Positions 9,001-15,000 of a stretch of DNA of 64,000 nt are shown piece after piece. Positions within the stretch are counted from its first letter, which is position 1; each line of letters begins with the position of its first letter. The stretch lies in the IMG/VR virus record IMGVR_UViG_2531839666_000014. One strand, written 5' to 3'. The DNA is from a virus. Its lineage: Duplodnaviria; Heunggongvirae; Uroviricota; Caudoviricetes. The position numbers were made by a program.

Positions 9001-12000
9001 GGGTTCCTGACACAGCAAAAAACAGGCGCGTTGCAGGTGAACTACGCTCCTCTGTTTGTTACGCAATAAAAACTGGTGTTTTCGACTATGCAAAACAGTT
9101 TCCCTCCTCACGCAATCTGGAAAAATTTGGTGAGGCCCGACAAGATTTAACCATAAAAGAACTGGCTGAAAAATTTCTGGCACTGAAAGAAACTGAAGTC
9201 GCCAAAACATCACTCAACACATACCGTGCCGTCATCAAAAATATCCTGAGCATAATCGGTGAAAAAAATCTTGCCTCATCGATTAATAAAGAAAAATTAC
9301 TGGAGGTTCGTAAAGAGTTACTGACTGGATACCAGATCCCCAAAAGTAACTATATTGTTACACAACCAGGGAGATCGGCTGTAACTGTAAATAATTACAT
9401 GACAAATCTTAACGCCGTGTTCCAGTTTGGTGTTGATAACGGTTACCTGGCAGATAATCCGTTTAAGGGGATCTCGCCATTAAAGGAATCAAGAACCATT
9501 CCGGATCCTCTTTCGCGGGAAGAATTTATCCGTCTTATCGATGCGTGCAGAAATCAGCAAGCAAAAAATTTATGGTGTGTTTCTGTTTATACTGGCGTTC
9601 GCCCTGGTGAGCTGTGTGCACTTGGATGGGAGGACATAGATCTGAAAAATGGAACAATGATGATCAGGAGAAATTTAGCAAAAGACCGTTTCACGGTACC
9701 AAAAACACAGGCGGGAACCAATCGGGTCATTCATCTTATTAAGCCAGCAATCGACGCTCTCCGGAGTCAGATGACATTAACGAGACTGAGCAAAGAGCAT
9801 ATCATTGATGTTCACCTCAGAGAGTATGGCAGAACAGAAAAACAAAAATGCACCTTTGTTTTTCAACCTGAAGTGTCAGCGAGAGTAAAAAATTATGGTG
9901 ACCATTTTACCGTTGACTCAATAAGGCAGATGTGGGACGCAGCGATAAAACGTGCCGGACTCCGCCATCGAAAATCATATCAGTCGAGACATACTTATGC
10001 CTGCTGGTCGCTGACAGCTGGTGCTAACCCGGCATTTATAGCAAACCAGATGGGCCATGCAGATGCGCAAATGGTATTTCAGGTATACGGAAAATGGATG
10101 TCTGAAAACAATAATGCACAGGTAGCTTTGTTAAATACACAGTTAAGCGAGTTTGCCCCAACCATGCCCCATAACGAAGCAATGAAAAATTAATTTAATA
10201 TTTATCAAATAGTTAACACGCATGACTCTTGAAATCCATAAATTCAAGCGCAGTGCCCAGCCATCCCGATACTGCTGCTTTCACCAAATCCTTAGTGCTT
10301 CTTTCATGTTTTTCTATTGTCATAATGGTTATCTCTAAAAAAGAGGTAAGATGCGTACTACTTACTCGCCGTTATTGGTATTATTCAGAAAAAGTGAGTA
10401 AGACTTTGCAGCAATGTTTTTGATCCTGTTCAAATAAACTAATGGCATCAGCAACATGCTGGAAATCAAACGTATGGGTAATTAATTTTTCTGGTTTAAT
10501 TAACCCTTTACTTAACCAGTCGATAACAACCGGAAATTTATTTGCATTTAAGCGTGAAGAGAAAATAGAGAGTTCTTTTCCGGTAATTCCTTGCTGAATC
10601 ACTTCAGACGGTTCACTGGAGAAGCCCATCAATACAATACGTGCCGCAGGAGAAGCCAGCGTTACGGCCTCTTTCAGGATAGAAGGATGACAAGCCGCAT
10701 CGATAATTAATGTGTAAGCGTACAGCCTGAACCGTCTGGTCAGAATCTGACGAATTAGACAAAGTGGTGTCCACCAAATAAGTAGTGGGAACCAAAGTAT
10801 CAGATATGCAGAAAAATGTGACTCCCGGCAGGCGAAAAGGCTGCCCTAATTATCCTCCCGAATTTAAACAGCAGCTCGTTGCTGCCTCCTGTGAACCCGG
10901 GATATCCATCTCAAAACTTGCTCTTGAAAATGGCATTAACGCCAATCTGTTGTTCAAATGGCGACAACAATGGCGCGAGGGAAAACTGCTATTACCTTCT
11001 TCAGAGAGCCCCCAGCTACTTCCTGTGACTCTCGATGCCGCTGCCGAACAGCCAGAATCGCTCGCAGAGGCCCGGAAACCCTCAGTATCAGCTGTGAGGT
11101 AACGTTCCGGCACGGGACGCTCCGCTTCAATGGCAATGTCAGCGAAAAGCTCCTGACTCTGCTGATACAGGAACTGAAGCGATGATCCCGTTACCTTCCG
11201 GGACCAAAATTTGGCTGGTTGCCGGTATCACCGATATGAGAAATGGCTTCAACGGCCTGGCTGCGAAAGTACAAACGGCGCTGAAAGACGATCCCATGTC
11301 CGGCCATGTTTTCATTTTCCGGGGCCGCAGCGGCAGTCAGGTTAAACTGCTGTGGTCCACCGGTGACGGACTGTGCCTCCTGACCAAACGGCTGGAGCGT
11401 GGGCGCTTCGCCTGGCCGTCAGCCCGTGATGGCAAAGTGTTCCTTACGCAGGCGCAGCTGGCGATGCTGCTGGAAGGTATCGACTGGCGACAGCCTAAGC
11501 GGCTGCTGCCCTCCCTGACCATGCTGTAAATCTCTTTATCCTGGTTGTCACAGAATAAGCCCGGTAAAATACGGGCTTATGAACGACATCTCTTCTGACG
11601 ACATCTTCCTGCTGAAACAGCGCCTGGCCGAACAGGAAGCGCTGATCCACGCCCTGCAGGAAAAGCTGAGCAACCGGGAGCGCGAAATAGACCATCTGCA
11701 GGCGCAGTTGGATAAACTCCGCCGGATGAACTTCGGCAGTCGTTCCGAAAAAGTCTCCCGCCGTATCGCACAAATGGAAGCCGATCTGAACCGGCTTCAG
11801 AAAGAGAGCGATACGCTGACTGGTAGGGTGTATGACCCGGCAGTACAGCGTCCGTTGCGTCAGACCCGCACCCGTAAGCCGTTCCCTGAATCACTACCCC
11901 GTGACGAAAAGCGACTGTTGCCTGCGGCGCCGTGCTGCCCGAACTGCGGCGGTTCACTGAGCTATCTGGGCGAGGATACCGCCGAACAGCTGGAGTTGAT

Positions 12001-15000
12001 GCGTAGCGCCTTCCGGGTTATCCGGACGGTACGGGAAAAACATGCCTGTACTCAGTGCGATGCCATCGTGCAGGCACCTGCACCTTCGCGGCCCATCGAG
12101 CGGGGTATCGCCGGACCGGGGCTGCTGGCCCGCGTGCTGACCTCGAAGTATGCAGAGCACACCCCGCTGTATCGCCAGTCAGAAATATACGGCCGGCAAG
12201 GTGTGGAGCTGAGGCGTTCACTGCTGTCGGGCTGGGTGGATGCATGCTGCCGGCTGCTGTCTCCGCTGGAAGAGGCGCTTCATGGCTATGTCATGACTGA
12301 CGGCAAACTCCATGCCGATGATACCCCGGTCCAGGTACTGCTGCCGGGTAATAAGAAGACGAAGACCGGGCGGTTGTGGGCGTATGTTCGTGATGACCGC
12401 AATGCCGGGTCAGCGTTGGCACCTGCAGTGTGGTTCGCTTACAGCCCGGACAGAAAAGGCATCCATCCGCAGACTCATCTTGCCTGCTTCAGCGGTGTGC
12501 TGCAAGCGGATGCGTACGCCGGGTTCAACGAGCTTTATCGCAATGGTGGGATAACGGAAGCTGCCTGCTGGGCTCATGCCCGCCGAAAGATCCACGATGT
12601 GCACGTCCGCATCCCGTCAGCACTGACGGAAGAAGCCCTGGAGCAGATCGGTCAGTTGTACGCCATAGAGGCGGATATAAGGGGAATGCCGGCAGAGCAG
12701 CGGCTTGCTGAACGTCAGCGAAAAACGAAACCGTTGTTGAAATCCCTGGAAAGCTGGTTGCGTGAAAAGATGAAGACCCTGTCGCGACACTCAGAGTTGG
12801 CGAAGGCGTTCGCGTACGCACTTAACCAGTGGCCGGCACTGACGTACTATGCGAACGATGGCTGGGTGGAAATCGACAACAACATCGCTGAAAATGCCCT
12901 GCGGGCGGTCAGTCTGGGTCGTAAAAACTTCCTGTTCTTCGGCTCTGACCATGGTGGTGAGCGGGGAGCGCTACTGTACAGCCTGATCGGGACGTGCAAA
13001 CTGAATGACGTGGATCCAGAAAGCTACCTTCGCCATGTGCTTGGCGTCATAGCAGACTGGCCGGTCAACCGGGTCAGCGAACTGCTTCCGTGGCGCATAG
13101 CACTGCCAGCTGAATAACACATCCCCGTCAATACGGCCCTCGCTGTACGCTTACATTAATGTCGGCTTGATGCCTTTTTCAGCGAAAATCTCGCCAAGCG
13201 GTGTCTGGCTGTTATTAATCGCCCAGTCTGCCCCCGCTCTCTTTCGCTTTTTCCAGTCGTTCATCAATGCGATCGGCAACAATCACATTTTTAACGTTAT
13301 AGACGCCTTTTAATACCTGAACGATCGTCAGGCCGATTGGACCGGCACCATAAACCAGAACGGTATCATTTTCAGTCGGTTGACCATGACCGGTAACGTT
13401 AGCCGCAATGGTAAAAGGTTCGATCATCACCGCATATTGATCGGCCACTGCTTCAGGAATTTTCCACGCATTTTTTGCCGGAACCACGGCATATTCACTG
13501 AAACCACCGTCAGCGTGCACACCTAATACAGCAAGTGTCGTACAAACGTTCGGCTTACCTATAGAGCACGGATAGCAATGCCCACAGCTGACCACCGGAT
13601 CGACAGCAACGCGTTCACCGACTCTGGCGCTTTCCACACCTTCACCCACCGCATCAATGACGCCAAAGAATTCATGACCAATGACGCGCGGATATTTCGC
13701 AAAAGGATTATGCCCACGGTAAATATGGCTATCTGAACCACAAATTCCGGCAAGTTTCACTTTTACTCGTACTTCACCCGCTGACGGGGTGGGTATTTCA
13801 CGTTCGATAATCGACAGTTGATTCGGTTTTTCAATTAAAATGCTTTTCATTACCTTACTCCTTACCAGTTCCACAGCGTGCCATCTTCCAGACGTGCGAC
13901 TGGCAGATAAGCAGGTTCATAGGGATATTTCGCCGCCAGCTTTTCATCGAATTCGATGCCAAGACCCGGTTTGTCTCCCGGATGCATATAGCCGTTATCG
14001 AAAGTCCAGTTGTGCGGGAAGACTTCGAGCATTTGTTCGGAATAACCCATGTACTCCTGGACACCGAAATTGGGGACCCACAGATCAAAGTGCAGCGCCG
14101 CAGCCATGCAGACTGGTGACAAATCGGAAGGACCGTGTGAGCCAGTACGTACCTGATACAGCGAAGCAAAATCGGCAATCCGGCGCATACCGGTAATTCC
14201 GCCTGCATGGGTCAGCGTGGTGCGGATATAATCGATGAGTTGCTCTTCAATCAGTTGTTTGCAGTCCCAGATGCTGTTGAAGACTTCACCCACTGCGATG
14301 GGTGTGACGGTATGTTGGCGAATGAGACGGAAGCATTCCTGGTTTTCCGCAGGCGTCGGGTCTTCCATCCAGAACATGCGATAATCTTCAATGCTTTTAC
14401 CAAAGCGCGCCGCTTCAATAGGCGTTAAGCGATGGTGCATGTCATGCAGCAAATGTTCATTAAAACCAAACTTGTTACGTACCGCGTCAAACAATTTCGG
14501 CATGAAATCGAGGTATTTCTCCGTCGACCACAGCTGCTCTTCCGGCCACTGTCCTTTGGTTGCGGGTTCATAAGCCAGACCTTTACCTTTCGACATGCCG
14601 TAGGTGGTTTTCATACCAGGGATTCCGCACTGCACGCGGATGGCTTTGAATCCCAGCTCCTGATGACGGGCATAATCATCCAGAGCTTCATCAATACTGT
14701 GACCGGTGGTATGGCAATAAACCATCACCCCTTCACGAGACGCGCCGCCGAGTAACTGGTAAAGCGGCATGTTGGCAGCTTTGGCTTTAATATCCCACAG
14801 CGCCATATCAACCGCTGAAATGGCCGACATCGTAACCGGACCGCGACGCCAGTAAGCACCTTTATAGAAAAACTGCCAGATATCTTCGATACGGTGCGCA
14901 TCGCGACCAATAAGCTGCGGACAAAGGTGATCCTGCAAATAAGAGGCCACGGAAAGCTCACGTCCATTGAGGGTGGCATCCCCAAGGCCCGTAATACCGT

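Follow-up and report, generated by a model that had tools for sequence, protein, structure and literature searches.

A +1 G Frameshift and an ISEc8 Insertion in the rspB Gene of the rspA-rspB Operon

Organization of the Locus

The window (the whole stretch of DNA analysed, 64,000 nucleotides) carries the rspA-rspB operon, whose second and last gene, rspB, is split into two fragments by an insertion sequence with its genes directed opposite to rspB (Table 1). The operon is reportedly linked to starvation, and RspB, a Zn-dependent medium-chain dehydrogenase (PRK10083, MDR superfamily), is said to serve as the dehydrogenase partner of RspA in a cryptic route of the L-gulonate/mannonate type. The rspA gene is intact, as had been proposed in a preliminary description of the locus. 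Its product is a full-length ManD-type dehydratase of the enolase superfamily, matching NF011654 over positions 1-404 of 404 (820 bits) and the ManD model NF043051 (744 bits), and its DNA is 100% identical to that of the genome FHI_NMBU_11, where it is annotated as WP_001295394.1. The gene is presumably expressed, in a strain that is without RspB, the dehydrogenase partner of its product.

The inserted element had been placed in the IS66 family, an assignment that holds and can be narrowed to ISEc8 by identity, protein profiles, and termini. It is 99.6-99.96% identical to copies named ISEc8 by PGAP (RefSeq "IS66-like element ISEc8 family"), which lies above the ISfinder isoform threshold as judged against these PGAP-named copies. 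Its ends carry GTAAGCGTACAGC at 10714-10726 on the plus strand and at 13142-13154 on the minus strand as perfect inverted termini (13 of 13 nt), with no third match in the window when up to two mismatches were allowed. The inverted repeats stretch to 22 nt, of which 18 match, and the ends start with GTAA, in keeping with IS66-type terminal repeats of about 20-30 bp. TnpB matched PF05717 with 131 bits and NF033819 with 120 bits (cut-off 50), while TnpC matched PF03050, the catalytic domain, with 356 bits and NF033517 with 459 bits (cut-off 180), in addition to PF13005, PF13007, and PF13817, with zf-IS66, LZ_Tnp_IS66, and DDE_Tnp_IS66_C among its domains. Curated Pfam/NCBIfam cut-offs were passed by all three Tnp proteins, the truncated TnpA doing so with one TnpA model and failing with the other.

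Table 1. Features of the rspA-rspB locus and of the inserted ISEc8 copy (positions in the window).
Feature	Position	Strand	Remarks
rspB 3' fragment	10381..10713	-	wild-type codons 230-339 and stop; includes left ATTAATGT
Left target-site duplication ATTAATGT	10706..10713		8 bp
ISEc8 (IS66 family)	10714..13154	+	2,441 bp; usual copies elsewhere are one base longer (2,442 bp)
IRL of ISEc8, GTAAGCGTACAGCCTGAACCGT	10714..10735	+	left terminal inverted repeat
tnpA, frameshifted	10806..11185	+	open frame 10806-11102, 98 aa (88 native and 10 out-of-frame)
C3 run in tnpA	11071..11073	+	1-bp deletion; C4 in closest copy, ACCC in most
tnpB, IS66 accessory protein	11182..11529	+	115 aa, intact; directly upstream of tnpC
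tnpC, IS66-family DDE transposase	11579..13117	+	512 aa, intact
IRR of ISEc8	13133..13154	-	right terminal inverted repeat
Right target-site duplication ATTAATGT	13155..13162		8 bp; rspB nt 689-696
rspB 5' fragment	13155..13850	-	translated to 13215 only; 211 aa (206 native and GRLGD)
Premature stop TAA	13215..13217	-	from frameshift; 53 bp upstream (rspB sense) of IS insertion point
G5 run (C5 on + strand)	13231..13235	-	rspB nt 616-620; +1 G relative to normal G4
rspA	13862..15076	-	404 aa, intact; promoter-proximal gene of rspAB operon

Target Site and Reading Frame of rspB

In FHI_NMBU_11, the sequences that match window positions 8000-10713 and 13155-16000 at 100% adjoin each other without a break, and the two flank alignments overlap by exactly 8 bp, ATTAATGT. 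The unoccupied site, with a single ATTAATGT between flanks that are 99.96-100% identical, is present in FHI_NMBU_11, JNEC-KY202, and JNEC-KY174. Since the empty site of FHI_NMBU_11 holds one copy, a chance repeat is excluded, and the alignment proves that ISEc8 arrived in rspB by simple insertion. The inverted ends and the 8-bp target duplication claimed earlier are both confirmed, ATTAATGT standing twice in the window and once at the unoccupied sites. An IS-mediated rearrangement or a composite transposon was rejected, the flanks being contiguous in the relatives and the window holding no further IS terminus. The IS junction of the window (10713/10714) was absent from all 5,426 complete genomes, a set that excludes the strain of the window itself.

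Removal of 10714-13162 leaves an rspB of 1,021 nt, which gives ...ESGGRLGD* when translated in frame 0 and ...GADWAINNSQTPLGEIF...TFSE* in frame +1, the frame in which the 3' fragment, 100% identical to rspB of FHI_NMBU_11, ends as ...KVLLTFSE*. The frame shifts after Gly206, and deleting one G restores the RspB of 339 aa. This repaired protein (without the IS, one repeat copy, and one G) matched NF007489 over positions 1-339 of 339 with 695 bits (cut-off 376) and was identical at 337 of 339 residues to PDB 4ILK, "Starvation sensing protein rspB". The truncated RspB retains ADH_N intact with an ADH_zinc_N match of 36 residues (34 of 129 profile positions), the continuous frame for both domains being interrupted by the frameshift at nt 616-620 and by the IS at nt 689-696. 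The preliminary description had recognized that excision of the IS and one repeat copy yields an RspB-like frame broken only by a run of five G, and had judged the gene inactivated, a judgement that is supported. It had misplaced the run, assigning it to 13217-13221, which adjoins the premature stop, whereas the five G lie at 13231-13235.

The G5 Allele and the Order of the Lesions

An exact 81-mer with G5 was found in four of about 4,920 complete E. coli genomes (FHI_NMBU_11, JNEC-KY202, JNEC-KY174, and CFIAFB20190167), in all of which rspB is annotated by NCBI as "rspB frameshifted". The exact 80-mer with G4 occurred in 1,686 genomes, and those sampled among the remainder all span 80 nt. The 1-bp indel, previously put forward as possible, is on this comparison of genomes a real and inherited extra G, common to four independently assembled genomes. 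The possibility raised beforehand, that reference rspB alleles also have five G, is not borne out, since other alleles of the gene have four. In FHI_NMBU_11, JNEC-KY202, and JNEC-KY174, rspB shares with the window the same +1 G, flanks 99.96-100% identical, and the same adjacent prophage integrase; these three genomes differ in having no IS in rspB, the state before insertion. CFIAFB20190167 combines G5 with ISEc8 elsewhere in rspB, flanked by the duplication GTAAGACT at window 10398-10405. Because three of the four G5 genomes are free of an IS in rspB and the fourth carries ISEc8 at another rspB site, we infer by parsimony, over only five sequences, that the frameshift preceded ISEc8. Both lesions are confirmed, but their ranking in the preliminary description changes, with the frameshift as the older and primary one and the IS as a later arrival downstream of the stop.

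The rspB gene is almost certainly a pseudogene with two successive, independent lesions, the +1 G and then ISEc8. Slippage at G4, in the common ancestor from which a small E. coli clone descends, produced the extra G at rspB nt 616-620, so that the frame, shifted after Gly206, runs into TAA after 211 codons with the loss of most of the NAD-binding Rossmann domain. A resident ISEc8 transposed into nt 689-696 and duplicated the AT-rich ATTAATGT; comparison of genomes places this step later and in the line of this strain only. The insertion was probably neutral, since it lies 53 bp past the premature stop in a gene already dead and no operon gene follows downstream.

A Possibly Defective Copy of ISEc8

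The inserted copy has a frameshift of its own in tnpA, a feature that does not figure in the preliminary description. With one C restored, TnpA has 126 aa and its stop overlaps the tnpB start (ATGA); in the window it is truncated at 98 aa. The homology of the truncated product is clear (NF047595 at 80.4 against a cut-off of 74, with HTH_Tnp_1 and IS66 TnpA models matching), and the copy is a defective ISEc8, not a non-member. The 81 nt of the window across the C-run had no exact match among about 8,800 tnpA places, and the nearest tnpA copies among the matches listed span 82 nt, one base more than the window, and have tnpA annotated as intact. A programmed frameshift was rejected because this 81-mer is unmatched in the about 8,800 copies; the C3 run stems either from decay private to this copy or from a fault of the assembly. 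Loss of the C would truncate TnpA past the HTH domain and uncouple its stop from the tnpB start. All three genes are reportedly needed for transposition of IS679, a requirement carried over to this copy by extrapolation only. If the tnpA deletion is real, the ISEc8 of the window is probably unable to move unaided, although further copies of ISEc8 could still mobilise it in trans.

ISEc8 Insertions in the rspB/Integrase Zone

About 2.6 kb of chromosomal DNA around rspB and the integrase gene (window 9066 to 13338 minus the IS) had received at least nine distinct ISEc8 events in 45 genomes, in both orientations. A control zone of equal size, ynfE/ynfF, held one true ISEc8 event and about three by related IS66-family elements. 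The ISEc8 targets have 12-38% GC and the surrounding zone 37-43%; no shared consensus was visible among the seven targets. One 8-bp site at the 3' end of rspB, G(T/C)AAGACT (window 10398-10405), served independently as the duplicated target of ISEc8 copies of opposite orientation, in lineages unrelated to each other. This site resembles the IS terminus GTAAG.

Like the window, CFIAFB20190167, O103 ML775, JP538, and the strain 12690 group have rspB interrupted by ISEc8 with an 8-bp duplication. Their alleles differ in site (window 10398-10405, 13331-13338, and 13247-13254), and in ML775, JP538, and the 12690 group the IS lies in the orientation opposite to that of the window. Among them, G5 is known in CFIAFB20190167 only, the flank of JP538 having four G and ML775 and the 12690 group falling outside the set of G5 genomes. 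A single shared orientation for ISEc8 near rspB was rejected when an IS-reversed query matched 34 more genomes, the apparent bias being an artefact of a search that joined pieces on one strand only. A local hop from the site used in CFIAFB20190167 was also rejected: the window has 10398-10405 undisturbed and in a single copy, and the two insertions are for this reason considered independent.

Alternative Explanations

It is scarcely credible that the fifth G was introduced into the homopolymer by faulty sequencing or assembly, with the IS as the sole real lesion of rspB. The window does contain rare contractions by one base in two other homopolymers (the tnpA C-run and the A-run near 4966), and in some related assemblies the adjoining integrase gene has 1-bp gaps. 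However, these two suspect sites are contractions whereas G5 is an expansion, and the identical G5 recurs, with flanks 99.96-100% identical, in four genomes that were each sequenced independently (one from Norway, two from Japan, and one from Canada) and in none of about 4,916 others, while random error would not follow a clone. The reverse order, in which the IS came first and inactivated rspB and the extra G arose later in a relaxed pseudogene, is very improbable. The window, with both lesions present, gives no order by itself, but in three G5 genomes the ATTAATGT site is unoccupied and without a footprint, and an IS-first order needs either precise excision in several strains or a repeated origin of the rare +1 G. 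The presence of G5 with ISEc8 at a different site in CFIAFB20190167 also argues against it.

For tnpA, it is quite conceivable, although not quite an even chance, that the frameshift is an assembly artefact and that the inserted ISEc8 is, as would then be predicted, a fully functional, autonomous copy. In favour of this reading, the missing base falls within a homopolymer and none of the other copies, about 8,800 in number, shows the same loss; apart from it, the element agrees at every base with copies in 2012EL-2448, 2018-166, and CFIAFB20190167. Another unique-looking homopolymer contraction, A5 at about 4962-4966 where 797 of 798 genomes have A6, fits homopolymer under-calling in this assembly, so that the tnpA C3 may be unreal. 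On the other hand, one SNP and one indel are otherwise the sole differences between the window and its nearest relative over 20.8 kb, which points to a low error rate, and decay of IS copies after insertion is common. As regards the place of insertion, it is possible, though doubtful, that it was non-random, either because ISEc8 prefers the AT-rich integrase-rspB zone with its recurrent 8-bp site or because loss of rspB has been repeatedly selected. The number of ISEc8 events in both orientations with one site reused, their lower number in the ynfE/ynfF zone, and the low GC content of the targets are consistent with such a bias. However, the comparison rests on a single control region, the seven targets lack a visible consensus, and tolerance of insertions in a gene that is dispensable and adjoins the end of a prophage, combined with purifying selection elsewhere, could give the same picture. 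That the AT-rich integrase/3'-rspB junction, including G(T/C)AAGACT, is a genuine ISEc8 hot spot is unlikely; if true, it would provide an initial lead on how IS66-family elements choose their targets, a matter that is poorly understood.

Significance and Comparison with Known Elements

A frameshift followed by ISEc8 in rspB represents a known element in a known gene, a routine pseudogenisation that is ordinary gene decay, and its significance beyond strain typing is limited. In the literature searched, no relevant report on rspB together with ISEc8 was found. The +1 G allele is the mark of a small clone, known at present from four complete genomes and the window. The ISEc8 junction at 10713/10714 marks the line of this strain alone and could serve for PCR typing or outbreak tracing. 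The locus also indicates that an IS within a gene is not necessarily the inactivating lesion.

Compared with ISEc8 in STEC/EHEC and other E. coli, the copy of the window has the same tnpA-tnpB-tnpC layout, the same GTAAGCGTACAGC termini, and the same 8-bp duplication, and differs in being one C short in tnpA (2,441 versus 2,442 bp). The IS679 and IS66 prototypes are said to have three genes with overlapping tnpA and tnpB, GTAA-type ends, and 8-bp duplications. They share gene organization, end type, and duplication length with the ISEc8 of the window, and are different members of the family.

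The rspB Gene Is Interrupted by an ISEc8 Element

The rspB gene, the second of the rspAB operon, is interrupted by a 2,441-bp element (see Table) whose termini are perfect 13-nt inverted repeats, GTAAGCGTACAGC, with the extended repeats matching at 18 of 22 positions. With two mismatches permitted, GTAAGCGTACAGC was found at just two places in the 64-kb window, both of them element ends, and the element is flanked on both sides by ATTAATGT (10706-10713 and 13155-13162). It shares 99.6-99.96% identity with RefSeq copies annotated as "IS66-like element ISEc8 family" and is ISEc8, a well-known IS66-family element. 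The unoccupied site is present in Escherichia coli FHI_NMBU_11 (NZ_CP045712.1, locus L004), to which window 8000-10713 and 13155-16000 are each 100% identical, the two alignments sharing exactly 8 bp that correspond to a single ATTAATGT; JNEC-KY202 and JNEC-KY174 show the same empty-site arrangement. Because these relatives are contiguous across a single ATTAATGT, the IS ends and 8-bp target duplication proposed in the preliminary description are correct, and the element is shown to have arrived by simple insertion.

Table. Window coordinates of prophage, operon, and ISEc8 features.
Feature	Position	Strand	Details
Exonuclease	6083-8554		Prophage arm
Excisionase	8627-8878		Prophage arm
Tyrosine integrase	8898-10193		Prophage arm; intact
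rspB	13850 to 10381	-	Interrupted at 10714-13154
rspA	15076-13862	-	Just upstream of rspB, same operon
tnpA	10806-11185	+	HTH_Tnp_1 and IS66 TnpA model matches
tnpB	11182-11529	+	PF05717, 131 bits
tnpC	11579-13117	+	PF03050, 356 bits; NF033517, 459 bits; IS66 zinc finger, leucine zipper, C-terminal element
ISEc8 site, integrase gene	9066		Right junction only; OkiPb01717
ISEc8 site, integrase gene	9482-9489		Duplication AAAGGAAT; AHS8C65RI
ISEc8 site, intergenic	10312-10319		Duplication TTCTATTG; five poultry strains
ISEc8 site, rspB 3' end	10398-10405		Duplication G(T/C)AAGACT; one orientation in CFIAFB20190167, 2013C-4974, OkiPb01713; opposite orientation in the strain 12690 group (~30 genomes)
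ISEc8 site, rspB	13247-13254		Duplication CTTTTTCC; JP538
ISEc8 site, rspB	13331-13338		Duplication GGCCGATT; O103 ML775

The adjoining DNA is a lambdoid (Qin/Rac-like) prophage arm occupying window 1-10193, which stops 187 bp from the rspB stop codon; the annotations of CFIAFB20190167 and JNEC-KY174 show a frameshift in the same tyrosine integrase. The window begins (~1-800) within an IS3-family transposase gene, as aligned to another FHI_NMBU_11 stretch (L007 49039-49901); this gene, which has a programmed frameshift and is annotated with an "AL1L pseudoknot", adds another IS type to the window. By annotation transferred from FHI_NMBU_11, ynfG is an 84-bp remnant after ynfF (~22924-23007), beyond which lies a second prophage with antirepressor, TraR/DksA, and Ea22-like genes. 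The window is 97-99% identical to FHI_NMBU_11 from 23244 on, with many indels, which indicates that each strain has its own variant of this second prophage.

An Inherited Frameshift Preceding the Insertion

Removal of the IS and one repeat copy gave an rspB of 1,021 nt, whose frame shifts after Gly206 and ends in ...ESGGRLGD and a stop. Deletion of one G from the reconstruction yields a 339-aa protein that matches the NCBIfam equivalog NF007489 end to end (695 bits, cut-off 376) and is identical to PDB 4ILK ("Starvation sensing protein rspB") at 337 of 339 residues. The five-G run (five C on the plus strand) lies at 13231-13235 (rspB nt 616-620), not at 13217-13221 as first placed, a position that abuts the premature stop at 13215-13217 (nt 634-636). 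The truncated product retains ADH_N, while the NAD-binding ADH_zinc_N is down to 36 residues, or 34 of 129 profile positions.

An 81-mer centred on the five-G run was found exactly in 4 of the 4,920 complete E. coli genomes carrying this stretch (FHI_NMBU_11, JNEC-KY202, JNEC-KY174, and CFIAFB20190167), a count that would miss any five-G allele bearing an extra SNP, and NCBI calls rspB frameshifted in all four. The repaired four-G 80-mer matched exactly in 1,686 genomes, and the rows sampled further down the ranking all had an 80-nt span, indicating four G plus a substitution. Since the change tracks one clone across independent assemblies, the extra G, the 1-bp indel suspected earlier, is inherited and not an error.

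Three of the four five-G genomes lack the IS in rspB, the fourth (CFIAFB20190167) carries ISEc8 elsewhere in the gene, with duplication GTAAGACT at window 10398-10405, and the window's own junction is matched by no complete genome. From these observations it follows that the frameshift is ancestral and that the insertion came later and is private to this line. The IS lies at rspB nt 689-696, 53 bp past the premature stop; its target, in the operon's final gene, was already untranslated, and we infer that the insertion was most likely neutral. Homopolymer slippage broke rspB first, and DDE transposition with an 8-bp duplication then followed, a textbook mechanism. The overall interpretation of the preliminary description is supported after two amendments: the position of the G run is corrected, and the indel becomes the primary lesion. 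Its statement that rspA is intact also holds, as the gene encodes 404 aa matching NF011654 over the full length and its DNA is identical to relatives' copies annotated as WP_001295394.1.

State of the ISEc8 Copy

Compared with the 2,442-bp copies, the window element is one base short in a C-run of tnpA, with C3 at 11071-11073; the CFIAFB20190167 copy has C4 here, and the other two aligned copies have ACCC. TnpA is shortened to 98 aa (88 native), keeping the HTH domain and losing the ATGA overlap with tnpB, and restoring one C gives the normal 126-aa TnpA. The missing C is all that distinguishes the element from copies in 2012EL-2448, 2018-166, and CFIAFB20190167. An 81-mer across the C-run had no exact match among ~8,800 tnpA places in the collection.

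The deletion may be genuine decay or an assembly error in the homopolymer. The window holds a second rare contraction, A5 at ~4962-4966 where 797 of 798 genomes have A6, and because there are two, homopolymer under-calling in the assembly is possible; against such an error, this contraction is the single indel, beside one SNP, separating the window from FHI_NMBU_11 over the 20.8 kb shared. The A5 run falls in prophage intergenic DNA, in the dicB-ydfB interval (annotation transferred from FHI_NMBU_11). If the tnpA deletion is real, this copy would probably be non-autonomous, since Han et al. reportedly found in 2001 that the related IS679 needs all three genes to transpose.

ISEc8 Insertions in the Integrase-rspB Neighbourhood

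ISEc8 has inserted repeatedly in this neighbourhood in other strains, with at least nine independent insertions in the zone 9066-13338 (45 of 5,383 genomes), whereas the one control zone compared, the equal-sized ynfE/ynfF (19700-20728), showed one true ISEc8 event and ~3 by related IS66-family elements. At 10398-10405, the junctions in 2013C-4974 and OkiPb01713 are the same as in CFIAFB20190167. Opposite orientations cannot arise by homologous recombination between IS copies, and the insertions in the two orientations at this site are therefore independent. The site is unoccupied in the window, and GTAAG is common to it and the IS terminus. An apparent orientation bias of ISEc8 near rspB was rejected as a piece-joining artefact of the search, which disappeared with a reversed-IS query. 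In the strain 12690 group (L013, NZ_CP074977.1, rspB 3927-4946), ISEc8 sits in the last rspB codons, and PGAP still calls a full-length 1,020-nt rspB (WP_032345258.1) whose 3' end enters the IS terminus. The outcome here would be a protein with a chimeric C-terminus, not a pseudogene.

The insertion targets have 12-38% GC, compared with 37-43% for the zone and 50% for the whole window, a pattern that fits a preference of ISEc8 for AT-rich, dispensable DNA and is taken here as a lead only. The rspB gene is itself well known, and the window's junction, though new to the complete-genome set, is a strain polymorphism, not a novel type of feature; the rspB 3' end (10398-10405) may be a site-specific ISEc8 hot spot, the sole mildly novel thread.
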